A stretch of DNA of 64,000 nt from Paraspadella gotoi (lineage: Eukaryota; Animalia; Chaetognatha), in NCBI GenBank assembly GCA_051294375.1, contig CM119267.1, forward strand, positions 25,683,293 through 25,747,292, in the 5' to 3' direction. A program made the position numbers and the translations under genes. Positions 2,318-54,350 of this stretch are shown here, in pieces. The notes under the pieces are model-generated. The model saw only the letters and a program-made list of their open reading frames with translations. It ran no database searches and was not told the DNA's origin. Position 1 is the first letter of the stretch. Every line of letters starts with the position of its first letter.

Positions 2318-2539
2318 TATGGTGGACTAAAATCATCAGCGGCCATTGGTGCCGGAGGCAAGTCATTTGCCTCCCAACCCAAAGGCCCGGGGTTCTAGCC
2401 CGGTGGTTTCCTAGCAGTTAAGAGGGACGGGGCGCTTAACTCGCCTGTAACACGGTGTTACAGCCTGATCCGAAGCTCAGGGACTGCTTATATTGAACGG
2501 TTCTGTCACTAACACATAACAATAATTACTGTCTCTTCA
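2318..2539 (+). mobile_element. Solo LTR of TRIM family 2 (tRNA-like region + twister-like motif)
   Basis: Highly similar to LTRs 51450-51683 and 51866-52097. Termini TATGG...CTTCA. 4-bp TSD GTTT at 2314-2317 and 2540-2543. Confidence 0.88.
2413..2488 (+). ncRNA. Type-P5 twister ribozyme-like motif
   Basis: P5 AGCAGUU/GACUGCU; L1 GA-CGG; P1 GGCGCU; UAA (cut 2437/2438); GC-C; P3 UGUAACA/UGUUACA; G; P4 CCUGA/UCAGG; L4 UCCGAAGC (T1 CCG:CGG, T2 GC:GC). P2 is only 2-3 bp. Confidence 0.72.
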
Positions 2540-3235: not shown

Positions 3236-3340
3236 TGTTTTTTTCGTATTTTTTTTTATTTATTATTTTTTAAATTAATTTTAATAGGATTTTTATGCTT
3301 AATTGATAACATGTATTTTTTCTGACTACTATTTTTCAGT

Positions 3341-7996: not shown

Positions 7997-8475
7997 AATT
8001 AAAGATTTCTCACTCCAGTTTTCACCAAAATATTTTGGTCTTTTTTTAATTAATGATAAGAAAGAAAAGTCATCACGTTCCATAGTTTTTTCTATACTCG
8101 TCGCTTTCATATTTATCCGTAGAATTCATTCGCGTTTGAAATTTTATAACTAATTTACCATATTTTTAAATTAATCTAGTCATTTTGCGAATAATACAAG
8201 TTTTCTAGTTTTCAATTCAACCTTGAGTTCTTATTTCGACTAATTCTGCTAATTATTAAAATATAGTAGGTGAATAAGTAAGTCAGAAGGCCATAAGGCT
8301 TAAGCTTAATCCTTATTTTATACCTTTTTTGTTTTTGATACAACCGATTAGAAATAAGAGATTTTTTTCTCTTTGCCATATCTCGAATTTTCAAGGCGTA
8401 TATGACTAGTATGTACGTACTACGTAGTTGACAAAATTCGAAATCTCAACCAAAAACGGAGTTTCCTCATTGGCC

Positions 8476-9621
8476 ATGGAAGAAGAGGACGACGACGCCG
8501 ATCTCAGTCGTCAACGCGACGAGGTCGAGGCTTTGGAGGCCATCTTCGGCGCCGATGCCTTCGTCCGCGATCATGACCGACCGACCGACAACCCGCCCAA
8601 GTACAGTATCGAACTCAAACCCGGCTCCGCCGCCGCCGACTCTCTCACTTTCCGCGTTACCTTTCCCCCCGATTATCCTTCCGTCTCCCCACCCATTTAC
8701 GCAATCGAGGGCCCTTGGCTCAATCGCCGTCAACGCGAGATTCTCGACCGACGTCTCGAGCAGGTTTATCTCGACAACGTCGGACGTAGCCTCGTTTTCG
8801 ATTGGATCGAGATAATTCGAGAGACGCTACTCGAGTGGACGACGTCGACCGACGACGATGACGAAAAAAACGACGCCGACTTTCCCGTTTCACACGACAC
8901 CTCCGGAATTCACGAAAAGATTCGGATTTTGGGCGAGTTGCCGGAAATCGTTTCCGGCGAGCCGCTAACCGACCGGAAAAGCACCTTTCAAGCCTTTCTC
9001 GCTCGCGTCTCTAACGCTGACGAAGCAGCCGCAGTTTTAGATCATCTCAAGAGTCACAGGTGGTGATAAATCACGAGATGTGAAAGTCGTTCTCTGATCA
9101 GTTAACAGTGAGCTTACGATAAATAAAATAGTTGGATGAAACCCCTCTTTCGATTCTGCGCAGAAAGATCGGTCATGCGACCCACAACATGTGGGCGTTC
9201 CGCGTCTCCGGCGGGGATTCCTCCAAACCTGCACTCGCTCGATGCGACGACGACGGAGAGACTCACGCTGGAGGCCGCATGATGCATCTGCTTGAGGTTG
9301 ATCATCTTTGATCGGCGAGAATCGAGAAATGTCACAATCCTGACCCTTGCTGTCTGTCTTGCTAGTTTAAGGCTTAACTCGTTCAGGTGATGGATGCAAC
9401 TGACGTTTTGGTGGTCGTCTCGCGATGGTACGGTGGAATCCATCTCGGTCCCGACAGGTGCTTACTGTAAAGATATGAGTAGAATTAATATAAAAAATAG
9501 ATAAACTAAAATTTTTGATAAATGAAGGTTTCGCCACATCTGCAACCTGACTCGAACTATCCTTGCGGATAATGGGTTCTCCAGGCCAAAGAAGGGAGGG
9601 AAGAGTGGAAGGAAAAAGTGA
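8476..9621 (+). CDS. IMPACT: Protein IMPACT (RWD + UPF0029/YigZ domain)
   Basis: Exons 8476-9059, 9164-9296, 9387-9457, 9528-9621. Motifs DEVEALEAIF, FPPDYPSVSPP, DRKSTFQA, ATHNMWAFR, CDDDGETHAG, VVVSRWYGGIHLGPDRFRHI. Confidence 0.93.
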
Positions 9622-10866: not shown

Positions 10867-12887
10867 TTTTGACAGTTGACCATTAGTGAGGCAGTGAGGA
10901 AGTTGAAATGTGTGTCCATTTTCTTTTTTTCATATCGATTCAAATATTTTTTGTTTGAATTTCTACCTCATTATGATTTACTGCAATATGCAAATTAGAT
11001 TATAGTACTTTTTCATTAATTTTTTTGATACTATACCCTGGCGAGTAGAGCGTATTCTAAATGTCAGTTATGAACAACATATATGAACAACATATATACT
11101 TAAGGGAGTGGTCTTTTCATATAATTGAAAACATTCTTTGAATATTTTCCACTTCATTGATAGGGAAGCCAGGTACTCTGGGAGTGAATAAACGAGACTG
11201 TGAGAGAGTCTTGATTGAAAGCTTGCAGGGACCTGCTATGTCATTATCTTGTAAGAGTGATGGAGGCCTTAAACACCAAAGCCTGTCCAAAGTCAGGGGC
11301 AAGATTAGGGTAGCCCCACTCAATGGGGTGAGTCAAAAATTAGAATGATTACATGCTCAAACGAAAATTTATACATTTTGAAGTATACTTTCAATGGACA
11401 AAACATTTCTTATGTGGCTTTATACCCAAATAATTATTTTTTAATATTTATTTATAAATAGGAAAGGCCAAAAATTTTTTTCATAATTTTTAAATTTTAA
11501 GACCAGATTCAGATAGCTCATAAAAAGTTGTCTACACAAAGTATAATTCTTTTTTAAATATTTTCATGATAAATAAGTCAAAAATAAGAAAAACCGTAAA
11601 AAATTATCATCATCATCTTTCGATAATTTTATCAGTTTTTTATATTTTCACATAGAAAACATAAAAATTTTTAAAAGCTGTAATTATATTTCTTGTTTAA
11701 CTTTTATGCTCTATCAGAATCCATCAAAAAATTTTAAGATTTTTAAAAAAAATTTTATAATGTAAAAAAAGATAAGTAATATTTAATGTATTAATCAAGA
11801 TGTATAATGTAAATTTTTTTTTGAAAATGATTGTTTAAATATTTAGTCAAGACAACTAAAAATACTTTGTTAATAGTCGAAATTTTATATTATCTCTGGA
11901 GTTGGTCCCTAGCAAGATAGCTTATTTATAAATGAATGGATAATTGTTTATTATGGTGTGTACCAATTTCATACCATCAGTGAACATAAATATATAAAAA
12001 AATTAATTTTATATTCTTAAATTTTTGCAGTAGGCTATATTTATATATAAAATCGAAAAATTTCAAAATAGGCTTTTCTTAATTTTTATTGCAGATTTGA
12101 ATTCCTCATCAAAAGTTGATAAAAAAAATATGAATCATTTTTAAAAATTTTTTTATTAAGTGGGTTAAAAATTTTAAAAAACTATATTAAAAAAAGTTAT
12201 ATTTCTTTATATCAACTTTTTATGACGAATCCAAATCTGCAAAAAAATCTTATAAAAAACTATTTAAAAATTTTAATATTTATTAGATTAGTAGTAGTAT
12301 AAATATGGCCCACTGCGTAAATTGTAAAATTTATTATGAATTTTTTTTATACATAAATGTTCATTAGTATAATGTTGTTCGTTCCTCACTTTTAGAATTT
12401 TAATTAAAGTTAAACTTAGGAATTTTACTACGCCTTACTCTATAATTCACTTTGTCGGTCCGTCGGTCCGCCCCGCTTTACTGGCGAGATCCTTATACTT
12501 TTAAGATTTTTTCATATTTTTTTTCGATCGACAAATGGATATTTTGTGTGAATGCGCTGATCATTTCTGCGTCATCATATTCGAAACTCCTTCGTAATAT
12601 TGGCTGACTTTAAAAAAAAAAGTAAATGAGGTTCATTTGTTTATGAAATTTAATTATGATTCCATGAAGGGGTTTTATTTGTTAACATTATAAAAAATAG
12701 TTTAGTTATATTTGTTTAGTTTAAAAAAGACATTACTACTACTTGGAAAACTATGTTATTCGGTATGTAGTTAATATAAACTAATGTTGTCAGGAAAAAA
12801 CTTGTACGCTGACTTGAAGCCCCAAAGTTAGATTCCATTTCCGTCAGATCTTTTTTGGATTGTGTCATTCCCAAATCTATGTGGGAC

Positions 12888-14837
12888 ATGTCGGCGAACA
12901 GCCTCCTTCATCTCGTCGACCACTTTCAGCGCGTCGAGTCGGCCGTCGTCGACCTCCTCTTCCTCAGTGCCGTCAAACTCCAGTCTCTCGTCGACGCCGA
13001 GGTTTTTCTCTTGGTCGCCGGCAAAGACCGGCGCCGCTTTTACGCCACTCCTCGTCTTGCGGCGTCTTTTCTCGACGGCGCCGTTGATGCGGGTCTGCAA
13101 GTCGAAGAGGGGGACGTCAGAGTGGAGCCGGTGGCGGAGGGAGGCGAGTCGACGAACGCTTGGATCGAAACAACGATTACATCTCCGCCTCAGAATCGAA
13201 AACGAACGACGGCGCCGACGCCTGACTCATCCTCTCTCGGCGCTAAAAGACGCCGGTCGTCGATTCCAGATTGGATCGCGGAACCGGCGTCGATCGCCGT
13301 CGACGACGGTGCCGACGTCAAGGAAGAGATTGAAGAGATTATCGTCGAAGACGACGACGACGATCATTCTCGAATCGATGTCGCTGCGGCGCGGGTGACG
13401 CCGTTTTCCACCGAGGGAACCCTCGAAGACGCCGGGGCCCCATTTGACGTCAATGAGGATCCTCGGGAGCGTCAGAAAATAGCGGCGTTGATGGGAGTGG
13501 AAGATCCGTGGGAGGCCTTTCGCAAAGGGACAGTTGAGAATCGCCTCCTCACTTCTGTCTTTTATAATTTCGGAAAGAATCTCGCTCTTCGATGTCCTGC
13601 GCATGAGGTGAGAGTCCACCGCGCCTTCCATGAGCATTTTCAGTTCGGGAAAGCCGCGGCTCAATAGTTTCTGTTTTTTTGTTTTTTTTTTAATTAAAAG
13701 GAATAATACTGTAATAATAGTAATAGAAACTCGATATAAGTTCATTTTCAGTCGGTCTTCCTACTTACGTTCTAAATGCCAATAATTCGGATAATATTAA
13801 TATTTTATCAATCAAGTTCATACAAAGTAAGAAAGTAAGGCACCATGACACTTTTAATGCTTCTTGTGCATATATTTTATTCTTTTGTAATGCTTAATTA
13901 CGTAACTTCATCTAAATTCGGTCATGTGATTAAAAAGTCAACTCGGTATGATGCGCGGGGTTTTCCGTCTCTTGCTCACCCTTCTGAGAGTATCTATAAC
14001 GCATGTAGGATCGAGTCTTTAAGGATCAAAGACTAGAGGTAAGCAAAAGCAAGCATCGGTAACATTAGTAATAACAACGACCTCGAAGGTAAGCTCGGCT
14101 TAGCCACTCTATTCGAACAATATAAACCGTAATAATAAACACTAAACCCGGGCGATGGCTAATTAATAAAATGCGATCTGTAACGAATGAAATCATGATT
14201 AAACAAAGTAATGAAATAACGATGAACAGTATTGTTTGTAAACAAATATTGATTATTTATATGTTTAAATACTTTTATAAAAGGTAAATAAGATCGCGTA
14301 TACCTGTTGGACATAAACTCTCGTCATAATCCGTCGGTGTAATTCGTGTAATACTAATAGTTGATTATTTTAAATAATATCTCACAAATAAGTGATCACC
14401 CATAAGTTGTTTGTTGTGCATATATTTTATACCTATGTATTCACGTGACTATGGAAAATGCGTCCACGAAAAAATGATACTGCGGCATTCTTTCGATTTT
14501 TCCACGAGAAAGAGAGATTGAAAGAATGGAATGGAAAGCAAAGCGTCGTTTCATAATTTTTCCGATCCTCTCGCGGAATTTTAATCTTAAATTTTGGAAC
14601 AAGGTGACTTTCTCTGACCCTTCCGTCTCCGCCTATTTCGCCCGCCACGTAAACGATTTCCTGCGCCAGTTTCCCCGCCTCCTCGTGGACCGAGAGGCGA
14701 AGCCGCCTTCGTTGCTCGAGTCTCCCGCCGATGACGTCCTACGCCATAAGACAGCCTCTTCCTTCATCAAGAAGGCGGCGAGAAACGGATTCGAGAAAGG
14801 AGTCGTTTTCTTGTGTAAAACGAGGGATAAAACTTGA
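12888..14837 (+). CDS. MADS/SRF-like N-domain family protein, paralog A
   Basis: Exons 12888-13607 and 14604-14837. N-terminal KLQSLVDAEVFLLV...FYATPRL; conserved C-domain DPWEAFRKGTVENRLLTSVFYNFGK...ARNGFEKG. Confidence 0.75.
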
Positions 14838-18224: not shown

Positions 18225-21200
18225 ATGTCCCAGGATTCTCTGCCTCCGCCTTTCCGCTCTCTCGAGATTTCTTGGACTGACTTTATCTTTGAGACTCTCC
18301 TCAAGCTGGAGTCGTTGACTGAGGCGCGAGTCTTTCTCTGCGTGGAGTCGCGGCGCAGAGAGGGAAGACGTTTCGGCGGTTCCAAGGATCTCGTCGACGC
18401 CTTCCTCGCGGGACGATTGGGAGGCGCCGCCGACGACGTCGAGGTTTGCTGAGGAGGAGGGGGGAGATTTAAATTTGATTAGATAGGCAAGTTTAATGGT
18501 GGGGGAAAAAATTTAGCCTACGAATATTGAAAGACTAGTTAGGAGTGCGGGGTAATTCGGAACACTTTTGTTGATAGGCAAGTTACCTGGTCGTTTATAA
18601 GGTTATTTTAAATATTTTTACATTTACTGATAGGAAATGATGTCAATATTGTTGATGCAACATTTCAAATCAATCGATTCACGCATTGAAAAATAATCTA
18701 CAAAAAATGGTCATTTTTCACGCCCAATTTTTAAAAGAAATCTGAGTTCGTTAAATTTTCTTTTTGGTTCCACTTAAATTTATAGCTTTGGTCGAGTGAC
18801 TTAATTTGTAACAAAAAAATTGATTTTCTTTGATATCTTTTGAACCAAAAATGATAGAACGATGAGACTGGTATCATATTAAAGCCATGATTATGGGGCA
18901 TCTTTTTCATATAATTTTTCTCAAACGTTTCAAAGGATTTTTCTTTATTCTGTATCGGAATCTTAGTCAAAAGTATAGCAACTGTCGAAATTAAATTAAA
19001 CATACTTGGCCGTATTTTAAAAAATAAAAAATTATAGATTCGAAAGAGAAAAGATTGAATTGTGGCAGCAAGACTTGGGGCTGCCTCACTGCTGTCCGTC
19101 CTCGGCCTCGTCTCAATGGCTGAGCAGGGTAAGTCATCTCATTCCATCCGTGCGTCCCGGGTTCAATCCCCGGGTATCCCGGTTCTGGCCTAAATGTGAC
19201 GGTGCCGGTATAAACATGCCAGTGACAGGAGGCGGTCACTGAGGGTCCGCAGCCCTACGCCAGTTGGTGAGATACCCCGCGCCCCGGGTATCACAGGCTA
19301 TCCTCCCGTTGCCATAAGTGGTGAGCCCTACTATCGAACACACAACCGCTGCGCACCGTGCACCCACGCTTACGTCGCTTAGGGTATGCATATCACGCCT
19401 ATGCCCTACTTCTCTGGTAACGCTCCAGACTCGCTCTCTCGCTCGCCCGCTCTCACTATGGCAATGAGATCAAAACCTTCTCTCAGACATCTCCTCAGGA
19501 TTGAGGCCCCTGTGGAGAAGTCTGGTGGGGGGATCCTGTGGCAGCAAGACTTGGGGCTGCCTCACTGCTGTCCGTCCTCGGCCTCGTCTCAATGGCTGAG
19601 CAGGCTAAGTCATCTCATTCCATCCGTGCGTCCCGGGTTCAATCCCCGGGTATCCCGGTTCTGGCTTAAATGTGACGGTGCCGGTATAAACATGCCAGTG
19701 ACAGGAGGCGGTCACTGAGGGTCCGCAGCCCCTACGCCAGTTGGTGAGATACCCCGCGCCCGGGTATCACAGGCTATCCTCCCGTTGCCATAGAATTATG
19801 TTTCTGATGTAATCAAAGATTTTATTTTTTTTTAAAACACATGTTTCGAACAGATTACTGTTCCTCATCTTTCTTAAATGTGTTATTGTATATTTTTTTT
19901 AAATATTACAGAAAATAATAACTAAAATACTATTATTAAGAGCATAGTCTTTCATTAATGTTTTATGAAATTGTAAATCTTAAGTGGGAAAAATGATTTT
20001 TAATATAATTTTTTTAGTTTTGAAAAATTATTGAATAACAATAGATAAAAAATTGGTAAATATTTTCTGATTATTTTTGACGAAGTTATTTATTTTCTTC
20101 AATTCCTGCATTTTGTCCCCATCTTCCTTTTCAATTAATATTTGGTTTTTGCCCATTTTTTAGTCGGATCTGCTTTCAGCAGATCCCGACTCTATAATTC
20201 ACTTTGTCGGTCCGTCGGTCCGCCCCCTCGGTATTGTCGGGCACTCACTTATATCAAGTCATAACATCGAATTATAATTAGAAGTAGAAGGGGCGATTGA
20301 CCTGAAAATTTGTATGTGGGTAGGAAAGTGTGTGATTAAGCTGGAAACTAAGTTTCGATGGAATCGTCTGAGTGGAAATGAGTTTAAATGGAAAAAACAA
20401 AAAACCTGTTTCACTAATGGATTATGCTTCTTTTTCTTTTATATTAAATGTAAATGCAAGATGTATTAATTATTCAGTTAATTAATCAATTAGTCAATTA
20501 ATTAATCAATAATTAAATAATCAGTCAATCAATTAAGTCAATCGTTATCAGCATTATTCTCATCGTCGTCATTGCTTTTGTCGTGGTTAGTGCGGAAAAG
20601 ACCTAAAAACAAACCTTTTAATCTAATTAATTAATTAATTAATTATCGATAATGATCGTGGGCAGATCCGACATTGTTTGCTTTTTTTATTTTTTTTTTT
20701 ATTGCTAAAAATTTTTACTGTAATATTAATAGTATAACAATTTTTTCAGCTTAATTATTTAACAAATGTTGCTAACTCTTATTATTACTTAGTAAATTAT
20801 CACTAACGCGTTATAAAAAGCATATGAGCTAACACAGAAGACTTACTTTACAGGTGTTCCGTTTTACCCCAATTTAATTGTAGCTATGTAAAAAATAATT
20901 AAATTATATGTCAGTTTTCCGTATTACCTCCGTTCCCAATTCCCCCTCACTGCCCTAAAGTTTTTGTTAAACTTAAACTTTAAGTTAAAGTTTAAGTTAA
21001 AGCGGAATCTTGACAATAAAAAATATTTTTACCAATCGTCTAACTGATATCGCTTTTCAGGTGACGCTTGACAAATCGACGAACGTATTAAGGGAGGCGC
21101 CGCCTCGACGTCCGAGGAGGAAGAGGAGATCTCATTACGAGGATGAAGATGAGGCGCCGTCGTCGAAGCGAGCCTCATTGGCTGACGAGCGGTTCGTCGA

Positions 21201-21878
21201 ATCCGATTCGACGACGACGATGACGACGACGACCCCCTACGACACTTCTTTCGGTCCCGTCGTCCTCTTCTCAGAACCAGAAGTCGGTGGTGGACTGGCT
21301 ACGCCCATCAAGACAGAGACGACGCCGAGCGGCTTCGTTTCCGGCGTCGTCGCCGACTTGGACGATGACTTTCTCGCCCAAAACGCCCTCTCTCCGTCGC
21401 CCTCCCGCCCAGGGTTCTGCCGTCTCCCGACCTCCGATCGCCTTGCCGCCAAAATCGCGGCCATTCAGAGCGTCGCGGACCCTTGGCTCGTCTACAAAAA
21501 GGGAACGGTCGAGAACAAACTCTTCTCCTCCGTCTTTTACGAGTTCGGGAGGGATCTGGCCTTCGGGTGCGGGATGCCTGACCCCTCCCTCAAGGACCCA
21601 AGGGTATGGCGAAGGACTTTACTATAATACAAATGTGTATGCAAATGAGTTTACCAATTCTATCATCGCTCCCGCAGATTCACGACGCCTTCTACGACGA
21701 ACTCAGAGTCTTCATCGCCGCCAACTTTTCCAGATTCGATTTGAACAGAGACGAGAATCCCAACTTGGGCGAGGACGACAACTGCCTAAAAAAGTATTCC
21801 GCGATGGCTTACATGCGTGACTTGGCCCGGGGAGGCTTTAAGAAGGGGGTCATCATCATGACTAAGAAGAGGGCGTGA
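18225..21878 (+). CDS. MADS/SRF-like N-domain family protein, paralog B
   Basis: Exons 18225-18443, 21061-21603, 21678-21878. ETLLKLESLTEARVFLCVES; DPWLVYKKGTVENKLFSSVFYEFGR; MRDLARGGFKKG. Confidence 0.78.
19117..19170 (+). promoter_or_regulatory. tRNA-like internal Pol III promoter (A box/B box) in TRIM-1 LTR; second copy ~19593-19646
   Basis: A box TGGCTGAGCAGG (19117-28); B box GGTTCAATCCC (19160-70) in a T-arm-like stem. Confidence 0.7.
19185..19263 (+). ncRNA. Type-P5 twister ribozyme-like motif (5' LTR of TRIM-1)
   Basis: P5 CUGGC/GCCAG; P2 AUGU/ACAU; L1 GA-CGG and UAA (cut 19211/19212); P1 UGCCGGUA; GC-C; P3 AGUGAC/GUCACU; G; P4 AGGG/CCU (one C missing vs the 3' LTR); L4 UCCGCAGC. 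Confidence 0.72.
19661..19740 (+). ncRNA. Type-P5 twister ribozyme-like motif (3' LTR of TRIM-1)
   Basis: Same fold with complete P4 AGGG/CCCU. Predicted cut at 19687/19688. T1 CCG:CGG, T2 GC:GC. Confidence 0.8.
20161..20685 (+). mobile_element. Helentron-associated non-autonomous element (HINE/DINE-1-like); relatives at ~12440, ~50435-51070, ~51310-52460 (-), ~57550-59170 (-)
   Basis: 5' GTCGGATCTGC with adjacent inverted copy, GTCGGTCC microsatellite, 3' subterminal GCAGATCCGAC, T-rich flanks. Confidence 0.65.
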
Positions 21879-22192
21879 CAAAAGAGGCCATTGATATATT
21901 CTTCGTCGTTTTAAAAATTACTACCTTACTATCTCTTATAATGATTACTTAATTGATCTCATGTGAGAATTTTTTTTTTAACCCGGATTAATAATAATCA
22001 AAAAGTAAAACGTTTCCTTGATTATAACATCTTTTTTAAAAAAATACTGAAAACGAATCATGTAATTATTCTTTTTTTTTAGTTTGTAATTCGTGATAAA
22101 AATTGAAATGGCATTTTTATAAAGTTATGTTACTTTTTTCTTCGCGATTCTGTTCATTCGTCTATTTATTATTCTCCAGCGAATTTCTTGCC

Positions 22193-23555
22193 ATGACCAC
22201 CATATCCTCTTCCCTTTTCAACCTGACGAGCCGCTTCGAGGAGATCGAAGGTTCCATGTGCGACCTGATGCTGGAGACAGTCCTCAAACTGTCCGCGCTG
22301 ACTCAGTCCCGCGTGTTTCTCTGCGTGGAGTCGGCGTCGTCGTCCCCTAAGCGCCGCATATGCGGATCCGGTGATATGCTCGACTCTTTCGTCGCCGGCT
22401 CAATGCGACCCTGCGACGCTGACGTGATCGTCGAGTTGGCAGCTTCGACGTTTCGATTGCGGGAACGCCCTTTGTCGAACGGGACGACAAAAGGAAAACA
22501 GAAGCGTTCCTGGGCGGATAATTATCCTTTGACGCCGGTGGAAGACCAGGATTGGCAACCTTCTGCGTCCAAGAAAAAGGCGCAAGGGTTTCCGGTTGAA
22601 TCGCCGCAAACGCCATTCGATCCTTGGACGACGCACTTGGAGGTCGACGAGCGAGTTGGCGGCGCCGCCCGCTTCGGCGCCGGAGTCGAGATCGTCGTCG
22701 CCGCCAAAAGAGAGATCGAAGAACTCGTCATCGACGACGACGCCCAGTTAGGAGACGGCGTCGTAGAGATTAAATGTGGCGTCGTTTCGAACTCTTCCGT
22801 CAACGCCGGATTGGACTCCTTGACGAACGACGCCGTGGAGTCCTTGGCAGTGTTGTCCGATAGGCGCGCGGCCAAGATCCTCGCTTTGCAAAGCATCACT
22901 GATCCTTGGCTCGCATTTCGAAAAGGCTCAGCTGAGAATAGAATTTTTGCTTCAGTCTTCTACGATTTCGGCAAAAGGTTCGGCCTCCTGGTTCTTAAAT
23001 ATTTATTAAAAACAATAAACATTTTTCTTCGTCATTTTGTCTTTTAATGATTTTTATGTGGCAGTACGACTTGAAGCTGTTCATCCTCACCCTCTTCTTA
23101 ATGGTGTACAAAATCATCTCAACCGTGAGTCCCGTTCAATCTCTGGGTACCCCAGTTCTGTGAAGGGACCGCGTTAAAAACGCCAGTGAGGCGGCCTTTG
23201 AGGGTCCGTAGCCCCTGGTATCACAGTAATTCCTCCCATTGCCATAATTCCCACTTTTCCTGTTCTAAGCTTCGCCCTGGAAAACCACGACGATCCCGAC
23301 CCGATGGGCAATCGCAGCCGCGAAATCTTTTTTCAACATCTCAACGAGTTCGTGAAGCGTAACTTCACTCGGTTCGTCCTCGATCGTCGCGTCGGCAATC
23401 CCATTGTCGGCACCGAAGAGGATTGCCTCAAGTCCTACTCGGCGCTGGGGTTCATGAGGAAAATCGCTCGGACTGGATTCATGACGGTCATCAAGCGGTT
23501 GGAGGAAAAAAGGAGCAAAGGGAAAACCAGAACCTCGTCGTCCTCTTCGAGATGA
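22193..23555 (+). CDS. MADS/SRF-like N-domain family protein, paralog C
   Basis: Exons 22193-22977 and 23270-23555 join in frame (FGKSFALEN). ETVLKLSALTQSRVFLCVES; DPWLAFRKGSAENRIFASVFYDFGK; MRKIARTGF. Confidence 0.78.
23057..23246 (+). mobile_element. Old diverged solo LTR related to TRIM-1
   Basis: Termini TGTGGCAG...TTGCCATA. Retains GTTCAATC and GAGGGTCCGTAGCCCCT (twister P4/L4). No clear TSD. Confidence 0.75.
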
Positions 23556-24242: not shown

Positions 24243-25450
24243 AATGAGTTGATCAAATTAGTGGATAGCATTTGCAGTTTTTGATTATTTTCTTGGCGAT
24301 CCCGGAGTTGAATTCCCTCGGGGGAGGCTTATGGGAAAACGAAGAGAAAAAAGAGGAGAAAATAAAGTTTGTTTCTTTACGGAAAAAAAAATTTAAGACC
24401 GTAACAACAATGATATTAAAAACGTTTTTAAGCTTCACGAGCTAAGGAATTCTTTTTAATTCTTAAAAAAATTTAATTATAATATTTTTTTTCATTGCCT
24501 TTGATAGATATTTACAAAATAAGTTTTTATAAGTATTTGGATACTAACTTTCAGAGATAGAGAGAGAGGCAATTTTAACCTTGATATCTCTCACTCTCTC
24601 CGAATTATTAAATGACCATTATAATCATAAACAAAATTTTGTTATTTTGTAAATATTATTATTATATTTTTTACAAATTTATTAATATTTAAATAATATT
24701 TTTTGAAATGTTAAATTATTGTATACTTAAGCCGAAACTTAATTTTAAATTTAACTCTAATTTACCCCTAACCCTAATTTACCCCTAACCTTAACTTACC
24801 CCTAACTTATTTTTAACCTTAATTTATTTTTCTAGTTAACCTAAACTTATTGTTAATTTATTCTTAACCATAATTTATTGTAACCTTAATTTTTACCAAA
24901 ATATATATTGGTTGTACCAATTTCATATAACAAAAATAAAAAATCTCTAACTGGTGGGCTCTGGGCCTAACTAAAACTCACGTCTATCGGAAACGGAAAG
25001 GCATGGGAGGTGAATAAGTATATTTCATATCTGGGTTCTATACTCTATCCGAAAATATAAAAAGGTCCAAAAAAAGGGAGAGAGAAAGAGGCGGAGAGAG
25101 AGAGAGAAGATGGACTGAACCTAAACTTGAACGCGGCCCCGAATCCCCGTTAGGAGGATGAGGAGGGAGGAGGAAAAGAAGAGGAGCTGTAGACCCGCGT
25201 AGTCTACCGGCCTTCGATTCTGAAAATATTTAAAAAAATTATATCTGAATTTCTTTATTTTTTTCCCGAAACATCCTCTTTTGTTCCATTTCGTTTCTCT
25301 TATTTTTTCCGTTATAATTCTTTAAGAAAAACCTTGCTCTTCGTTTTCCCATAGGCCTCCAGAGGGCATTGATCTCCAGGAATGCCATTTTCTTTTTGTT
25401 ATTTGTTATCTCAAAAGCAATTGCTTTATTTCGCTCTTATTCAGAGAGCC

Positions 25451-26629
25451 ATGAGCAACAGCAACGCCGGTTTTCAAACGACTTCCCTTTCGGGACTGTC
25501 GACTTATTTGCAGCAGCTTGAGACTTCCTTGACGAGCTTCTTGCTGGAGACGGTGCTGCGGTTCCAGGCGATGACTCGGTCGCGCGTCTTTCTATGTATA
25601 GAGTCGGACGAGCGGAAAGTCTTTTGCGGAACCGATGGCCTCGTCGACGCCTTCATCGCTGGCGATTTGACCTTCGTCGCCGAACGTGACGTCGAGGTGA
25701 CGTTGGAGTCGACGACGACGGCGTTGAGGGAGAGGGTTCCGGCGGACGCTTCGAGGAGAAGGAGTAGGAGAAAAAGGAAGAACGAAGAGGTGGAGACCCA
25801 GACTTCTGCGAAAAAAAAATCCTTGTCGGGAGTCGAGGATTCGAAGGTTGTCATCCTTGTTGTTGTAATTGTTGTTTTATTCTAAACCAGAAAACTATTC
25901 CCTTTTTGCCTTCGATGCTTTTTAGGCCATCGTCGCTCTAAAGTCGGAGCCTTCGACGTTGATTCCGTCTTCAGTCAAAGTGGTAGAGGTCGTCGTTGAC
26001 GACGATGAGGACGACGAGATCGTCTACTTGGTCGACGAGGACAACGACGACAGCTTTGCCTTCGTCGGCGTCGAGTCTCCAGACGCCGCTCACCCTTCTT
26101 TACTCTACGACTCGATTCCCGAAAAAATGTCGGCGAAAATGTCGGCCATCGATTCGATCCAAGACCCGCTCCTAGTCTACAAGAAAGGCTCGGCCGAAAA
26201 CAAGATCCTCGCTTCGATTCTCTACGACTTCGGCAAGATGTTCGGCGTGGCTTGCGCCGAGGAGACAGTTTTGCCCGCCTCCGAAGCCGAGTTCGCCTCT
26301 ATCCACCCGCCTTTGGAGAAGCGGAGGCTTTTTTACATCATGCTTGAACGGTGAGAGCGGAAATTTAATCTACATAGTACATTTTTCTTATTTAAAATCC
26401 ATTATTATTTTTTGAATTTTTCTTATTCAGTTTCATCGCGGAAAACTTGAGTCGATTGACCGTGGACCCGGAAAAGAACCCCTTTGCTGGAACCGAGTCT
26501 GATTGCATGAACGCCAATTCCAAAGTAGCGTACATGAGGAACATCGCGCGCTCTGGCTTTCGGGGAGCCTTTCGCAGGACCATGAGTAGACGATGGAAAA
26601 AAAGGGGCCAGTCTAACTTCGCTTTTTAA
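25451..26629 (+). CDS. MADS/SRF-like N-domain family protein, paralog D
   Basis: Exons 25451-25846, 25926-26350, 26431-26629. ETVLRFQAMTRSRVFLCIES; DPLLVYKKGSAENKILASILYDFGK; MRNIARSGFRG. Confidence 0.78.
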
Positions 26630-28889: not shown

Positions 28890-31800
28890 ATGTTGAAACA
28901 GCGGATTGGTGAATACGGACCCGATTCTGGTGGACGAGTCAAAGGCGTCACTATCATGAAACCCATCGTATTCGGAAATCAGGTCGAGTGATGGTGATGG
29001 CAGATTGACTAGCGTCAATTGTCTCATGGTTAAATATTATAGTGGAGATCCTTGTTATTATTATATAATGCTCTCTCCGTTTTTCTGACCGAGAATCGGT
29101 TCTGACCAAATCATTGAACCAAATTTGATGCGTACAATGGACATATAAATGAGACTATCGAGGCGATTGTAACCGTGTTTTACCCCTGAGCTATGATTCA
29201 GGGCCATGGGGGGAGGTCACTCCAGTTGGGCAAAACTGACCAAAATACTTTTTTAAAAAAGAGACATTTTTTGGGTGGGATCAATTACATTTATGTCCTA
29301 ACTTTGTAGAAAAAACATTTTAAAACGAATTTTCATGAATTTAAATTGATTTTTCGTCCTTTGAAAATGCTGAGACTGTGGCGAATTCTCAATCAAACAT
29401 TTTTGAAGTAATAAATAGGTTTTTGTAGAAAAGTAAATGTCTGTGCAACTGTTCAAAACAAAAATATTTAAAAAATTTGTATTTTAGCGAAAACAAAGTT
29501 TAGATTTGTACTACAACGATTTTTTATTTAATGTGAACAGACATGTTTCGACTCTTGTTCGAGCCTTCATCAGTGTTTTGACAGACTATCAAAATCTTTG
29601 CAAAAATAATAAGTGTGTGAGAGAGAGAGAGACAGAGTTAAAGTTTCCAACAAAGTGGTGAGACAGAATAGTGGTCAGAGGTGAGGACAGGTGAAGGCAA
29701 GGCCAGATTGAGTGAGTTTTTGAAAAGAAGTGAAATGGTCAAACAGAGAGAGAGAGAGAGGTAATATGATACATTTGTGCAATGTACAACAAAGATATAA
29801 GATTTTAAAGTGGAAATAACAATTAGCTAAATAATAAATTAAATTAAATATAGAATTTGAAATGTGAAATATGAAAAATTACATTTGTTAGGGATAATTA
29901 AGTTAAAGAAAAGAAAGGATGAAATATAAGAGATAAGATAGAGCTCAAAATGAGCTGGCCCCCTTTGGTGGAGCAAAGGAGAGACATGGACGATGTGGTC
30001 AGGTCATTAGCGCGTCAATGGTTGAGAGGAGAGTATTACTGAGCTGGTAAATGTCGGGCTGGGGATTGTTCCTTGTGGGAACATTCCTAGTGCTACTCTT
30101 ATGTCTCTCTGGCCTGTTACGCTTGCTGACTGCCCTCTTCTCGCCTGCTGGTGAGATGGGTGGGTGTCCGTTCTTGCTGCTTTCGCGGCAGGAGTGGTGG
30201 ACTCCTCTCCTTCCTCCTGCAGCCGTCGTTTTGGGGGACGCTCGGTCCACAGAGAGAGGGACTGAGTTGCTGCATTTGAAGGAGAGGCATCGCCTGTCCA
30301 TTGCCTGCGCAAGGGTCTCCGCCTGCCTCGTTGAGTGGAGGTAGGGGAGTCATTGTGCGGACGTGGTGGAGGCGGGGCCTTCACCATGCTTTTGATAAGC
30401 GAATCATAGCTTGCAGGGAGATCGAATCGTCCTCCATCACGGTTCAAAGAGGGCTCGAGAGCTTTGATGTAGACTGCCTCTCTAATACCTCTTGAGAACC
30501 AGTTCGGGTCATGGGACAGCACGAGACAGTCTGATTCTCTGAACAGATGGCCTGTATTTGCCGAGTGTTCGGCAATTGCTGACAAGTAGTGACCTCGGGC
30601 GTCACGATAAGGCTTTGTCGATCTGTCAGAGACTTGCCTGTCTCGCCCACGTATGCTGCTGTGCAGGCTTGGTTGCCCTCCCCTGCACAGGCCGCCCAAT
30701 AGACGGCTCCTGATGTTTTCTGTCTGGGAATTTTATCTTTCGGTTTCACCAAATGCTCACGTAGAGAGCCGCGGGTCGTCACTGAAGTGGAGATTCCCTG
30801 CTTTGCCAGCACCCGCACCAATGCTTCAGTGATTCCCTGGTGGTAGGGGAGGGACAAATCTAAACTAACTGATGGGTAGGTCCATCGTCTTTATCTCTCT
30901 ATGAGTAAAGTCAAAGGAAAAGTCCAAAAAATAGGCAAAAAAAGTATATTCTCTGAGAGGGAGCTCGCGAGCTGAAGTAGAACCCAAGACAGAACTAAAA
31001 TCTCTCTCTTTGCTCCTTCTGTCGTCGCTCGATGAGGAGGAAGGGAAAGGGAGGAAAAGAGGCGGAAGAGGAAGAAGAAAAGGTGTCTCGAGCGAGAATG
31101 GGGAAGAGAAATGGGGGAATCCAGTGAAATATACTCATCCCTCTATCTGCTAAACTTTGTTTTCGCTAAAACACCAAAACTCAACAAAACGAAAGGAATA
31201 CCACATTATGGCTAAAAAATTTTTGACCATTTTTTGCCCCAATGGGTGACCCCCCAGAGGGCCCATATCTTGGCTCAGGGGTCAATTATTGAAATTTGCC
31301 TTGATATTTCTATTTGTATTCAGATAGGGATTGTTCATTCCAAATTTCAATAAATTTGATCCAGTAGTTTTCTCGGAACGTGTTTTGATCACAAAAAAGG
31401 GGTACCACATTTTATAATATGAAATTATAATAAAAGACGTTTTAAATTGTTCAAACAACGATTTTATTAGGGTAAGACGGACATGTTTCGGCTTTAATTG
31501 TACAAGCCTTCATCGGCGTCAAAGATGTTTGTGAATTTCAAACAAAGTTTGTGCAAAGGAAAGGAGAGAGAGAGAGAGAAAGAGAGAGAGGGCAAAGTTT
31601 CCAACACAGAGTTGAGAGAAGAATAGTGGTCAGATGTGAGGACAGGTTAAAGTGAGGACAGAATGAGCTAGATTGTGAAAAGAAACTAAATGGTGAAAAA
31701 TTGAGAGAGAGAGAGAGAGATAGAGAGACATTTGAAAGATAATACATTTTTTGTAATGTACAACAAAGATAAATTGTTGAAACTAAAGGTGAAATAAATA

Positions 31801-34800
31801 TTTTTAACAATTAACTATTAATAAATAACAGAGTGTGAAAAATTGAAAAATGAAAAAGTGAAATTGAGAGATTTGTGAAATAAGTATTAATATGAAATAA
31901 AGTGAAAGTTCAAGGATTAAGAAAGGCTCAAAGTGAGCTGGCCCCTTTGGTTGAAGCAAATGATGGGTCTTGACGATGTGGTCGAGTCATTGACGTGTCA
32001 ATGGCTGAAAGATAAAATCCCCAGACCGAAAACATCAGGAGCCGTCTATTGGGCGGCCTGTGCAGGGGCGGGAAACCAAGCCTGTGCAGCAGCATACGTG
32101 GGCGAGACAGGCAAGTCTCTCACTGACCGATTTCAACAGCACACGAAACCTTATCGCGACGCGAGAGGGCATTACCTGTCTGCTGTGGCCGAACATACAG
32201 CAAATACTGGCCATCTATTCAGAGAGTCAGACTGTCTCGTGCTGTCCCATGACCCAAACTGTTCTCAAGAGGTATTAGAGAAGCGATTTACATCAAAGCC
32301 CTCGAACCCTCTTTGAACCGTGATGGAGGACGATTCGATCTCCCTCCAAGCTACGATACGCTTATCAAAAGCGTGGTGGAGGCCCCGTCTCCACCACGTC
32401 CGCACAATGACTCCCCTGTAGCCACTCAACGCAACAGGCGGAGACCTTTGTACAGGCAATGGGCAAATGATGCCTCTCCTTCAACTGCAGCAACTCATTC
32501 CCTCTCTCTGTGGAGTGAGCGTCCACCCAAAAGACGGCTGCAGGAGGAAGGGGAGGAGTCCACAACTCATGTCGCCAAAGCGGCAAGAACGGACAACCAC
32601 CCATCTCGCCAGCAGGCGAGAAGAGGGCAGTCGACAGGCGTACCAGGCCAGAGAGACATTAGGGTAGCCCTTGGACTCTTCCCGCAAGGAAAGCCTTCCC
32701 AGTCCAACACACACAGGCTCAACCAACATGACCTCTCAGCCATTGACACGTCAATGACTCGACCACATCGTCAAGACCCTTCATTTGCTTCAACCAAAGG
32801 GGGCCAGCTCACTTTGAGCTCTTTCTTAATCCTTGAACTTTCACTTTATTTCATATTAATACTTATTTCACAAATCTCTCAAATTTCACTTTTTCATTTT
32901 TCAATTTTCACACTCTGTTATTTATTAATAGTTAATTGTTAAAAATATTTATTTCACCTTTAGTTTCAACAATTTATCTTTGTTGTACATTACAAAAAAA
33001 ATGTATTATCTTTTAAATGTTCTCTCTATCTCTCTCTCTCTCTCTCAATTTTTCACCATTTAGTTTCTTTTCACAATCTAGCTCATTCTGTCCTCACTTT
33101 AACCTGTCCTCACATCTGACCACTATTCTTCTCTCAACTCTGTGTTGGAAACTTTGCCCTCTCTCTCTTTCTCTCTCTCTCTCTCCTTTCCTTTGCACAA
33201 ACTTTGTTTGAAATTCACAAACATCTTTGACGCCGATGAAGGCTTGTACAATTAAAGCCGAAACATGTCCGTCTTACACTAATAAAATCGTTGTTTGAAC
33301 AATTTAAAACGTCTTTTATCATCCAAACACAACGAAACGAAAGGAAATAACGATGAAATTATAATATAAAATTTTTGACCATTTTTTGCCCCAATGGGTG
33401 ACCGGGTGATCCCCCAGAGGGCCCATATCTTGGCTCAGGGGTCAATTATTAAAATTTGCCTTGATATTTCTATTTGTATTCGGAACGTGTTTTGGTCACA
33501 AAAAAGGGGTACCACATTTTATAATATGAAGCCTTCTGTATATAAATAGCTCACTGGTGCCCACTAATGTATAAAATTGAAAAATAAATTTATCGAAGTA
33601 TTTTCATTGGTTCATGTTCTAAAATTTTATTATTTTCACACAATAATAGTATTAATTAATTAATATTTTTATGGTAACATTGATGTACATCTTAAGTACA
33701 TGTTTTTGCCGAACTAACTTGTCTTTTGGGCTAAAAATAAATTTTGATGTTTGGATATAATATTTGAGTTAATAAAATATTAAGGTGTTTAATTAGGCTA
33801 AGATTTTTTCCTGACGTCAATATATTATTTTCCCGCATTCTCGTTAATTTACTGCTGGTTAGGATACCTTTTCAGAGAATTCTTTAATGTGTGACAAATA
33901 TTCAAATATATAATTATATTGAAGTTTAATTTTTTCTCATAAATAGCTTTAAAAGAACCCTAACCTTGTGTTAAATAATAACGAGAGAATAGCAATCATT
34001 TTTAATGTGTCGCTCTTTACATAATTTGCGATTCATGATTAGGATTACTTCATATAAGAAAAATGGTACAGAAGCCAGCAACGAAAGTGATACTGATATT
34101 AAACATGTAAAACATAGGTTTAGGGTTATTTTTTATCACTAAATATGATTTAAATTAAGTAATTTTAGCTGGGTTTTTTGGTTTTTTTTGGGTGGGCTTC
34201 ACACATCACACATGTCTCCCCTTTGACATAGGTCCATCAATTTAAATTTATTCTTTGTTCTCCATATGAAAGCTGGCCTGACCCTCTTTGGTTATTGATT
34301 CTGGAAATAGAGTAAAAATTATTTTTTCACAATAGTAAATGTACTTACTTACGTTTAGGATAAAAAAAAGACAAAATTTAGAAAAAAAATTGTTCATTTT
34401 TTCCCATCTTGGCTGACCCCTATATCTCGAGTCAAAGGTCCAATTTCAAAAATGCCCTCGATAGTCCTATTTCTATCGCCCTAAAATTAGTTCATGCGCA
34501 ATTTTATTTCGTTTCTTTCCTTTAGGCGCGTTATTTCGGGAAGAAACGGGAAGAGGACGGACATACGCACTCGTGGACGATCTACGTGAAGCCCTACGAA
34601 AACGAAGATCTTTCTGTCTACGTGAAAAAAGTTCACTTCCGGCTGCACGAGTCCTACTCCAACCCCGTCCGCGTCCTCACCAAGCCACCTTACGAAGTAA
34701 CCGAGACCGGCTGGGGCGAGTTCGAGGTTCAGATCAAGATCTACTTCCACGATCCCAACGAGAGACCCGTTACTATTTACCACATTCTCAAACTGTTTCA

Positions 34801-35254
34801 AACCGACCCTAGCGTCATGACGGGGAAGAAGCTCGTCATCTCGGAACATTACGACGAGGTTAGAGAAGGGTAGCTTGATCTTGGCCGATTCCTTTAGTTT
34901 TTTTGAGGGGGAAAAAGGATATTGACCGATGAATTTATCGTATATATTACCTTTCATGATATCCGAATTTCGTCACAGATGATCTTTCAAGATCCCTCGG
35001 CCATGATGCATCAGTTGCTGACGACGTCGCGACCAGCATCTTCGGGGACGTGGAAACACGACACGGACTTTGAGGAGAAGAAGCGAAAGACTCTAGTGGG
35101 GGTGTTGGCAGCCAAGCAGAAGATCCGCCGTGAGATCGGTGAACTTCAAGAAAAGCTCAAGACGAGCAAAGACGCCGTCGCAAAGCTGAAGACAGAATTG
35201 AGCCGGACTCAAGAGATGGACGTTTTGATGGAGGAACTAAAAGATTTGGGCTAA
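28890..35254 (+). CDS. YEATS4: YEATS domain-containing protein 4 (GAS41)
   Basis: Exons 28890-28982, 34526-34858, 34979-35254. [60 protein letters not shown]. Confidence 0.95.
29535..29578 (-). ncRNA. Minimal type I hammerhead ribozyme (Penelope pLTR)
   Basis: AACA-CUGAUGA-A-GGCUC gaacaa GAGUC-GAAA-CAUG-UC/UGUU, with palindromic stem III ACAUGU. Confidence 0.82.
30867..31149. mobile_element. ~280-bp insertion (probable retroelement 3' end) inside the Penelope inverted repeat
   Basis: Flanked by a direct repeat CTAAACT that splits the sequence ACAAATCTAAACTTTGTTTTCGC. A segment of similar composition lies at ~24945-25220. Confidence 0.5.
31476..31520 (-). ncRNA. Hammerhead-like motif with CCGAUGA core (inverted arm)
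   Basis: Reverse complement of 33229-33273. Confidence 0.65.
33229..33273 (+). ncRNA. Hammerhead-like motif with CCGAUGA core
   Basis: GACG-CCGAUGA-A-GGCUU...AAGCC-GAAA-CAUG-UC/CGUC. Confidence 0.65.
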
Positions 35255-51200: not shown

Positions 51201-51482
51201 TTCCTCCTCCTCCTGCCCCTCAGTATATTTTGTCTAGCGATACATTCTCTAGTTTCTACTCTTCGCGAAATATACTATTATTTTCCCTCTATTTCCTCAC
51301 GCCTTCAATACCCCTCAAGATTACAAATAATAATTAATTAATGCAGCTTGAATTTACATTTAATATAAAAAAAATCATAATCAAATAGTGAAATAGATGG
51401 TTTGTTTTTTCTATTTTAACTCATTTCCACTTGGACGATTCCATCGAAATATGGTGGACTAAAATTCACCAACCGTTCATCA

Positions 51483-51553
51483 GCGGCCATTGGTGCCGGA
51501 GGCAAGTCATTCGCCTCCCAACCCAAAGGTCCGGGGTTCTAGCCCGGTGGCGG
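51483..51553 (+). promoter_or_regulatory. tRNA(Gly)-like sequence with A/B boxes in TRIM-2 LTR
   Basis: Acceptor-like GCGGCCA/TGGCGGC, A-box-like TGGTGCCGGAGG, loop GCCTCCCAA, T-arm CCGGG GTTCTAG CCCGG. Confidence 0.6.
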
Positions 51554-51556
51554 CCT

Positions 51557-51632
51557 AGCAGTTAAGAGGGATGGGGCGCTTAACCCGCCTGTAACATGGT
51601 GTTACAGCCTGATCCGAAGCTCAGGGACTGCT
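51557..51632 (+). ncRNA. Type-P5 twister ribozyme-like motif (5' LTR of TRIM-2)
   Basis: Same fold as 2413-2488. L1 GA-UGG pairs with L4 CCG through one wobble. Predicted cut 51581/51582. Confidence 0.68.
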
Positions 51633-51972
51633 TATATAGAACGGTTCTGTCATTAACACTTATCAATAATTACTGTCTCTTCATTAGTGAGGCCGACTTC
51701 CGAACACAACAGCAACAACACTTTCAGGCAACAGGCCTCAACCTGGCGATGCACTTTCCGTCAACAACTCATCAGGCAACATGCCTCAACTTGGTGACGC
51801 ACTTTCCACCAACAACAATTCACTGAAGAGACGCAACAGATTTCTCCCTACGGGAGGGGGGGATGTATGGTGGACTAAAATCCACCAACCGTTCATCAGC
51901 AGCCATTGGTGCCGGAGGCAAGTCATTCGCCTCCCAACCCAAAGGTCTGGGGTTCTAGCCCGGTTGCCGCCT

Positions 51973-52048
51973 AGCAGTTAAGAGGAACGGGTCGCTTAAC
52001 CCGGCTGTAACCTGGTGTTACAGCCTAATCCGAAGCTCAGGGACTGCT
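51973..52048 (+). ncRNA. Degenerate twister motif (3' LTR of TRIM-2)
   Basis: Same fold, but the presumed general-base G reads A (AGAGGAACGG) and P1/P4 carry mismatches. Likely inactive. Confidence 0.5.
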
Positions 52049-54350
52049 TATATTGAACGGTTCTGTCACTAACACAACAATTATTACTGTCTCTTTAGAA
52101 ACTTTATTTCCTGCTCAATCAGACACTTTCCTACCCATATACAAAATTTGAAGTCAATCGCCCCATTCATTGGCGGTCAAATAGTGAAATATATTTTTTT
52201 TGTTTTTTCCATTTCCACTCGGACGATTCCATCGAAACTTTATTTCCAGCTCAATCACACACTTTCCTACCCACACACAAAATTTTATTCCAATCCATCC
52301 ATCAAATCACGAGTAATTGGTGTTTTTTGCGAAGGTGGGACGGACGGACGGACATTATTTTTTTTGCATAGTTTATCACAATTCGATGTTCTGACAAGAT
52401 TAGGGGTCAGACCGACAAAGTAAATTATAGAGCCGGAATCTGCTGTAAGCAGAACCGGCTAAAAATGTGATTTTGGTAAATTCATTATTAAATTCACAAA
52501 ATCATTAGGAAAGCCTCCGATTTAGTACGAAAGTTTTATTCTTTCTCGGGATCTTAATCTCGCCGCTGCACTTTATAAAGCTTCTTTTGAATCAAGTGGT
52601 CCTGTTCTAGGGATAGTTGGAATAAGTCATGTCGCAAGAATAATTGCAAATTGGAACAATAATTAAAATAAATAAAAATAATAAAATTTAAAAAAATAAT
52701 AATAATAAAAATTAAAAATAATAATAATAACAAATAATAAATAATCGAGAGTATCATTTCCTTTAATTGTATTGTATTGAATTTACTAAACCTGGAGACC
52801 TCTGTGACTCCTCTAAGAGTGTCATTTTCATTTAACTGGAGGAAAAAGAGTAGGTTAAAAATACTACTGTCACTGTTCTTTAAACTATATATTGTTTTAT
52901 CGTCAATTTTTTGTGGTTTTATTACATTTACAATTTTACATAGATTGATTTGACCGATTTAAATTTAGAAAAAGATGAAAACATTGAATTAAAAGGAAGC
53001 ATAACAGTGATTATTATTGTGAAACTGTCATTAATAAATTACTATACCATATGATTCTGTGCAGTCAACAATCGTGCTTTTTGAAACTCAGGTATTGTTA
53101 TGTACCCGTAAATATTTTTAATTAACTTTTAAATCATTATTTGCTTGTCAACTTTTTTTCAGAATTCGAAATGTCAAAACAGTCTGATGGAGAGTCTCTG
53201 AAAACTTTTAATCACCCAGGTTTGGGTGCAACAGTCAAAGATTCAAGATTTCATGGAGCCTACGAGGGGCCTAACAGCGGAAATCTATGGTAACCATTTG
53301 TTTCCAGTTTCCAGTTAGTATTTACTGGTATTACCGATAACATAAGTAAAACCTAAAATAAAATTATAACTTTTTTTTGGAGGATAGAAAATTATAAAGG
53401 GAACAAGTTTGAGCAAACAATGTCGGATCTACCTACGATAATTAATTAATTAATTAATTAATCGATTAATTAATTAATTAATTTTAATATGTAATAATTA
53501 ATTTTAAATTTATATTCAACTTATCATCATCGATGTCCTTAAAATTGGGTTAGGACAGTTATTAAATGTTTTGTTTACATTTTATCAAAACAAACAAATA
53601 TCCTCTATTTTATTTTATGTCTCCTCTCTCTCTCTCACTCTCTCTCTCTCTCTCTCTCTTTTTATGCAATTGCGACGATCTTTATGCTTTTAAGATTCTT
53701 TTAACTTACATCATTTTTTCACATTAATTAATTAATTATATAATTAAGTAAAACATTTATTAGTAATCATTAATATTAAAGATTCAAGTAAATGTGACTC
53801 ATGTTTTTTCCATCTAAACTCATTTCCACTGGCACAATTCCGTCAAAACTTTATATAATTATTATATGTTAATAAATATTTAAAAGCTTCAGTGCAACAA
53901 CCCAATGAACTAATTCAAAAAGTTACATTGAAAATCGATTTAGTAGTAAAAGGAAAAAAAATTTTTAAAGAGAACTAGAAGTTATAAAAAATGTTCAATT
54001 TTGGCCCGCCTTACTAGATATATTTCATGTGATTAAACAATGTTATCGGAATAATAATTTTATCAATTTTATGTATTTTGTAAGTATTTTAAGTATTTTT
54101 ATTCAGTGAGTAAAATAACAACTTTTTTATTTGCTAATTTTAATCTCGGACTCTCTCTCTCTCTCTCTCTCTCTCTTTGCAATTGCGACGATCCTTATGC
54201 TCATTTTTCTGCTTTCTCTCTCTCTCTCTCTCTCTCTTTGCAATTGCGACGATCCTTATGCTCATTTTTCTGCTCTCTCTCTTCCTCTCTCTCTCTCTCT
54301 CTCTCTACTCGCTCACAAATTTCATCTCAATCTATTATGGGTTAAAATAA

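Follow-up and report, generated by a model that had tools for sequence, protein, structure and literature searches.

The element at positions 19061-19792 of the window (the whole 64-kb stretch of DNA that was analyzed) raises the question of what an animal LTR element would gain from carrying a twister ribozyme fold in each LTR. The reading that we favor, at a probability of roughly 0.4, is that of a twister-based LTR retrozyme of an animal, driven by Pol III, in which LTR-LTR pairing would yield a 476-nt monomer, a host ligase would close it into a circle, and a presumed Gypsy helper would be involved.

The 732-bp element is short, non-coding, and multi-copy, and its LTRs are near-identical. 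The first-pass annotation had described a complete LTR element with a PBS-like site, a polypurine tract (PPT), and a 4-bp target-site duplication (TSD). This description holds, with GAAT on both sides and a 98.4% identity between the LTRs, which differ by two substitutions and by two indels of a single C, and so does the retrozyme-like layout, with one twister fold per LTR set among the TSD, PBS, and PPT of a complete element. The parts are as follows.

19057..19060, unstranded: left target-site duplication, GAAT
19061..19316, + strand: 5' LTR, 256 nt, TG...TA, its boundary backed by public contig ends
19317..19536, + strand: internal region, 220 nt, free of TTTT (T4) on the + strand
19319..19331, + strand: tRNA-Trp-like PBS, 11 of 13 letters matching the honeybee tRNA-Trp site by eye
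19524..19533, + strand: polypurine tract
19537..19792, + strand: 3' LTR, 256 nt, with an A box from 19593 and a B box from 19636
19793..19796, unstranded: right target-site duplication, GAAT

The PBS-like site lies 2 nt past the end of the 5' LTR, and the purine tract stops 3 nt short of the 3' LTR. The two mismatches in 13, counted by eye, are relative to the honeybee tRNA-Trp site (PMC10886601 Fig. S2). The termini are TG...TA and not TG...CA, and one frame of 111 aa runs from stop to stop (19383-19718). Positions 19316/17 and 19792/93 are breakpoints of public contigs with many different flanks, which confirms the right end; in three public runs, the contigs with unlike flanks that end at the LTR boundary number 19+38, 17+6, and 27+8. 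The family is multi-copy, with 647 and 367 contigs covering 161 bases in two public DNA runs, and it is young. In two public runs labelled as other organisms, 1 and 2 contigs of low depth resemble the family closely, which we did not take as host range.

The remainder of the window includes host genes with Pfam matches:

3310-4771: USO1/p115 head
8428-9066: RWD domain
34526-35254: YEATS
61250-61630: prefoldin subunit

The best named matches of the USO1 exon are lepidopteran, at 48-58%. The window also includes a gene family with several copies that share a short conserved motif (12813-13667, 21001-21820, 22100-23047, and 25373-26354); this family has no Pfam match, and one member was without a homologue in a protein search. 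At 29513-33322, frames are inverted and duplicated. They have no Pfam match, and their translation presumably resembles the GIY-YIG endonuclease region of Penelope-like elements.

Each LTR begins its functional layout with a tRNA-like head upstream of the twister, a feature that the first-pass annotation had missed, as it did the palindromic P1 and a second family of elements in the window; its LTR element, P5-type twister, and retrozyme-like layout stand. The boxes of the 5' LTR are:

19117..19128, + strand: tRNA-type A box; the A and B pair occurs in 1 of 5,000 LTR shuffles
19160..19170, + strand: tRNA-type B box in a T-arm-like hairpin

ARAGORN found no tRNA at its default setting and only poor cloverleafs at a relaxed one. 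On the + strand, the first T4 downstream of the head is at 19820. Given the A and B boxes, the lack of T4, the size, and the 4-bp TSD, the element therefore matches the Helenus TRIMs (TRIMp3; Kojima 2024, PMC10886601). Like these, as far as the accessible parts of that paper describe them, it is a short, non-coding TRIM that has a PBS, a PPT, and LTRs with A and B boxes; its TSD is the 4 bp of animal Helenus, its size falls in the range of 311-1263 bp, and its PBS is tRNA-Trp-like, as in Helenus-2_SyJa. It has the two LTRs, PBS, and PPT of the group, is short, lacks reverse transcriptase coding, and shows the 4-bp TSD. TRGCY and GGTTC of the Helenus boxes are present, with AGG where YGG is expected. 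It differs from the described Helenus elements in its TG...TA ends and in the approximately 140 nt, including the twister, that follow the tRNA head. Both the Pol III transcription of Helenus and its mobilization by Gypsy are described as putative in the accessible text (PMC10886601).

Published Helenus sequences were also considered for ribozymes. A term search of the full text of PMC10886601 found no twister, and "ribozyme" in the reference list only. In the part of its consensus file that was available, in which line breaks may hide motifs, no twister-L4 motif stood in a twister context. Two LTRs from Synergus gall wasps in the same data (Helenus-2_SyJa-LTR and Helenus-2_SyUm-LTR; PMC10886601 Data S1) show, by eye, a type III hammerhead past the tRNA head, where the twister lies in the element described here, and both have a tRNA-Trp PBS; the accessible parts of the paper say nothing on these hammerheads. 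Judged by eye, the partial set of Nasonia Helenus LTRs examined did not bear out the idea that the twisters known from Nasonia reside in its Helenus elements.

Past the tRNA-like head, each LTR is predicted to fold as a type-P5 twister:

19185..19263, + strand: 5' copy of the type-P5 twister fold, with one C missing from P4; catalytic G 19198, predicted cut 19211/19212
19661..19740, + strand: 3' copy of the type-P5 twister fold, with every stem paired; catalytic G 19674, predicted cut 19687/19688
19212..19687, + strand: predicted 476-nt monomer between the cut sites

In both LTRs, the strand order and the P5, P2, P3, and P4 stems with pseudoknots T1 and T2 are those of a type-P5 twister. Pairing in the 3' LTR twister is Watson-Crick throughout (P5 5 bp, P2 4, T1 3, T2 2, P3 7, P4 4), and P4 of the 5' LTR twister has 3 bp, one of them G-U. 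The catalytic core is present, with the G and A of L1, the U/AA cut site, and U...A-G-C of L4; position 28 is C. The first-pass annotation had credited each LTR with every element of a type-P5 twister, which proved right for P5, P2, P3, P4, the L1 GA, the UAA, L4, and the pseudoknots and wrong in one respect, as a normal P1 hairpin is missing. Its coordinates for the cuts and the catalytic G, and the 476-nt spacing, are retained as predictions. Relative to the type-P5 model RF02684, the fold shares the strand order, GA, UAA cut site, L4, T1, T2, P2, P4, and P5; it differs in having an 8-nt palindrome for the P1 hairpin, a long P3, C at position 28, and a sub-threshold Rfam score.

A search with the Rfam twister models, suggested in the first pass, gave no gathering-level match in the element and only a weak twister-P1 match (17.6 bits, E 1.2); we rejected that type-P1 reading, as its T1 partner does not pair. 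Twister-P5 (RF02684) had no match to the isolated motif at E<=10, while 5 of 6 phage controls were over its threshold. The hammerhead model had no match within 18900-19950. Because Rfam misses the motif, we gathered phage P5-type twisters from IMG/VR with sequence patterns. Of the 102 loci obtained, 77 could be parsed; they reduce to 35 distinct cores, of which 24 are well paired. Our own covariance model was built from 17 aligned sequences, one of which (L064) is better called type P1. In this model, which is not fully independent because the T1 letters of this element entered one of the gathering patterns and about half of the training set was picked with them, the two LTRs rank first among 13 window matches (3' LTR 32.9 bits, E 7e-6; 5' LTR 24.3 bits, E 6e-4). 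Some phage type-P5 twisters share the element's T1 sequence, and several dozen of the phage loci form a cluster with its G-C swap in T1.

These searches bear on whether the fold is a chance resemblance in a GC-rich LTR. Such a coincidence would agree with the missing gathering-level match in Rfam. Over both strands of the window, a structural descriptor matches only the 3' LTR when P4 is set to 4 bp, and only the two LTRs when at least 3 bp are allowed; this descriptor was composed after the motif had been seen, a point in favor of coincidence, but it has no match in 20,000 dinucleotide-shuffled LTRs, and the E values of the phage model also speak against chance. A sequence-only pattern in metagenomes is instructive too, as all 11 of its matches, none of them related to the element, fail in P2 pairing (at most 2 of 4), in contrast to 4 of 4 in the element's twister. 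Chance resemblance is thus largely refuted, and we consider it very improbable. We conclude that the predicted type-P5 twister fold in each LTR is well supported.

Whether the fold would be active is a further matter. Its two departures from the rice twister are the C at position 28 and a C27G+G47C swap. In deep mutagenesis of the rice twister, A28C had a relative activity of 1.00, and C27G+G47C retained 0.86 in comparison to 0.13 for C27G alone (PMC5113685). The first-pass caveat about C for A in L4 is harmless by this measure. These values come from a 2-hour endpoint assay of Osa-1-4 in another sequence context, so they lift the objection to the position-28 C and do not prove activity. The other caveat, a missing P4 cytosine in the 5' LTR, is accurate for this copy, where P4 has 3 bp, but applies to a minority: measured against the 3' LTR, deletions at that place stay below 1% in four public runs. 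A 19728 G>A variant appears in 9, 9, and 2 contigs. No family variants were seen at catalytic letters in public contigs, but this says little, since most other positions vary no more. Nested folding in the LTR context does not favor the twister (P2 and P4 probabilities of at most 0.03), and the strand-swapped and monomeric folds each exceed the free minimum by at least some 12 kcal/mol, a value that leaves out pseudoknot energy. The 476-nt monomer folds with z = -3.7 as a circle (40 shuffles) and z = -2.6 as a linear molecule (100 shuffles). The twister likely cuts the element RNA into a 476-base unit, which is predicted to circularize.

Relatives in the window show what has become of the fold elsewhere:

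23057..23246, + strand: decayed solo-LTR-like relative of the main family, twister damaged, no matching TSD
51450..52097, + strand: complete element of a second family, with TSD GAAA, a PBS-like site, a PPT, and a twister with a 6-nt palindromic linker
2318..2539, + strand: solo LTR of the second family, TSD GTTT, twister fold at 2414-2487

The copy at 23057-23246 is old; it has deletions in the tRNA head and in the twister, and it sits between two open frames. In the complete second-family element, the LTRs are 92.7% identical, and the 3' LTR twister has decayed and lost its catalytic G. The LTR order is again a tRNA-like head (Gly-like in relaxed ARAGORN) and then a P5-type twister, here with a canonical L4, a P2 strand of 3 nt, and the palindromic linker of 6 nt. 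The circle predicted for this family would measure approximately 416 nt. The PBS-like site matches the tRNA-Trp site at 10 of 13 positions. Between the two families, the P3, P4, and P5 sequences differ yet stay paired. The second family is distantly related to the main one, weakly but significantly, with similarity scores of z 3.7 for the upstream LTR part (0 of 500 shuffles) and z 4.0 for the internal region (1 of 500).

The phage covariance model also matches twister folds in the window at 2418, 51562, and 11251, the first two being those of the second family. The last belongs to a third P5-type twister-like fold (11246-11305), with a 6-bp P5, another T1 pair, U at position 31, a linker that is a perfect 6-nt palindrome, and a P2/T2 region that is short or damaged. 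Neither A and B boxes nor an LTR were seen there, and a 68-nt stretch adjoining the fold recurs at 62099-62166. Separately, in one public contig, the downstream twister half is joined at 19687 to an upstream half that is not that of the element and has a longer linker, a hint of further related families.

The decayed copies allow another interpretation, in which the twister is a weak or inactive passenger, acquired from a captured SINE or Penelope-like tail, of an otherwise ordinary Helenus TRIM. Decay of the fold at 23057-23246 and in the second-family 3' LTR, the 19728 G>A contigs, and the failure of Rfam to recognize the motif are all what a passenger might show. A passenger is harder to reconcile with stems and both pseudoknots that are intact in a young family, and with a fold that is kept with different stems in a second family whose LTR is otherwise strongly diverged. 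We consider this interpretation quite unlikely.

The most unusual part of the twister is what stands in place of its P1 hairpin:

19203..19210, + strand: 8-nt self-complementary linker, 5' copy, replacing the P1 hairpin
19679..19686, + strand: 8-nt self-complementary linker, 3' copy

The 8 nt lie between T1 and the cut site. No hairpin is predicted within them, and two copies would form a self-duplex of 8 bp (-10.9 kcal/mol). By comparison, phage cores have 16-26 nt at P1, with a hairpin of at least 6 bp in 22 of the 24 well-paired cores. A relaxed scan of the window found a fully self-complementary linker only in the five intact twister copies, of three repeat types. Variants at a frequency of at least 1% in public contigs affect the linker ends only, sparing 19681-19685. 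One of these, 19680 G>A, retains the pairing. The two commonest, 19679 T>A and 19686 A>C, would abolish the outermost pair of the palindrome, so that 6 bp remain (phase from one contig). Taken together, the palindromic P1 suggests, from the letters of the linker, that two LTR copies may pair to cut.

A precedent exists in axolotl hammerheads, in which a 1-bp stem and a palindromic tetraloop are found and dimers cut better, according to the accessible parts of PMC7229834. Each twister could instead fold and cut alone, through a P1 of 2 bp with a 4-nt loop, the only stem that one linker can form by itself; the same 476-nt monomer and circle would result, and the palindrome would be incidental. 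P1 is dispensable in other twisters, including that of rice (PMC5113685, PMC6154101), so a dimer may be unnecessary. Both outer linker pairs are present as well, and outer-pair variants are common in the family. Against this, each of the three repeat types has a Watson-Crick palindrome in the four central letters of its linker, with a chance of approximately 0.07 each, and phage P5 twisters have long P1 hairpins. Moreover, if a twister could act alone, it would cut the circle as well, along with all solo-LTR transcripts. Constrained nested folding did not separate the swapped from the monomeric folds. Overall, we regard lone cutting as unlikely and continue with cutting by paired LTRs.

In the favored retrozyme reading, Pol III transcription would start near 19110, a position estimated from tRNA numbering, and would run through both LTRs, meeting no T4 until 19820. 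The 8-nt linkers of the two LTRs would pair as an 8-bp duplex and so create two strand-swapped active sites, and cuts at both LTR sites would release a 476-nt monomer without terminal redundancy. As that redundancy is lost, ordinary strand transfer would be impossible, and a circle would be the natural template. A host ligase such as RtcB, which circularizes axolotl hammerhead monomers (as described in the accessible text of PMC7229834), could close the monomer. A presumed Gypsy reverse transcriptase, primed at the PBS, would then cross the junction and rebuild a full LTR; no such helper element was found. With its single twister, whose P1 is weak, the circle would be resistant to renewed cutting. 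A 231-nt public contig (depth 897) that joins the internal region to the LTR start was set aside as evidence for a circle, as this junction exists in DNA; the contig set that holds it also covers a flanking repeat, and such contigs are uninformative on level, ends, and circles.

The same absence of terminators fits a linear template. Most of the published animal Helenus LTRs examined have, by eye, a T-rich run soon past the tRNA-like part (PMC10886601, in its accessible parts), in contrast to the two families here, neither of which has T4 on the + strand. The twister may therefore be an end-former, in which the cut in the 3' LTR replaces a T-tract terminator and the 5' copy often stays uncut; approximately 100 nt of terminal redundancy would be kept for ordinary LTR strand transfer, with no circle. 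The weakened P4 of the 5' twister in this copy would suit such a division of labor, but the short P4 is a minority state, and LTRs are copied off one template, so both normally bear the same ribozyme. Nothing was seen that spares the 5' site, and in a strand-swapped pair both sites would be cut. An end-forming role is thus improbable in our view, and the circle of the retrozyme reading remains our preference.

How the element relates to known systems depends on which of its features is compared; the sources below are described from their accessible parts. Plant LTR retrozymes are non-autonomous, with a type III hammerhead per LTR, a tRNA-Met PBS, and a 4-bp TSD (Cervera et al. 2016, PMC4918200; PMC7761336). 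The element resembles them in having a ribozyme in each LTR, a 4-bp TSD, a PBS, a PPT, and a monomer set by two cut sites (PMC4918200). Plant retrozymes have LTRs of 300-400 bp and circles of 600-1000 nt, in contrast to LTRs of 256 nt and a unit of 476 nt here (PMC4918200). The element further differs in its twister in place of a hammerhead, its Trp-like PBS in place of tRNA-Met, its tRNA-type boxes, and its animal host (PMC4918200, PMC7761336). A type III hammerhead together with a tRNA-Met PBS, the mark of a retrozyme as published, is thus not what we found. Insect elements that carry type III hammerheads are hinted at, as unpublished, in a 2020 review (PMC7761336).

Animal non-LTR retrozymes are tandem repeats of type I hammerheads tied to Penelope-like elements (PMC7229834; bioRxiv 10.64898/2026.07.22.740005), and Perere-3 of Schistosoma is a LINE with a 5' twister (PMC8501958). 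Unlike the element, these lack LTRs, PBS, and PPT (PMC7229834, PMC8501958). What it has in common with the animal retrozymes is that both are ribozyme-bearing retroelements, with the dimer-assisted cutting of axolotl hammerheads through a palindromic loop as a parallel (PMC7229834), and with Perere-3 it shares a twister in the service of a retrotransposon (PMC8501958). A 2026 preprint divides retrozymes into plant LTR elements with type III hammerheads and animal non-LTR elements with type I (bioRxiv 10.64898/2026.07.22.740005). Within the accessible full-text literature, a scope outside Repbase, subscription journals, and the Roth 2014 lists, there was no twister in an LTR element, no Helenus ribozyme, and no dimeric twister. 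In these sources, the layout was otherwise found described only for plant elements, which use a different ribozyme. By its sequence, the element appears best filed as a Helenus-type TRIM that would work like an LTR retrozyme, outside the published retrozyme definition. A broader proposal, of an animal LTR retrozyme lineage with a tRNA-type promoter, Trp priming, and an interchangeable ribozyme (twister in the two families here, a type III hammerhead in the gall-wasp Helenus), in which a dimer twister would be active in full-length transcripts and off in the circle, is speculative, and we lean against it.

If true, a twister in an animal LTR element would link the Helenus TRIMs to the retrozymes, and retrotransposition would gain a second defined role for this ribozyme. 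It would suggest that Pol III TRIMs can solve both 3'-end formation and strand transfer with the help of a ribozyme and of circular RNA. A twister dependent on a partner LTR would, if true, be a new natural ribozyme architecture, one that Rfam has overlooked.
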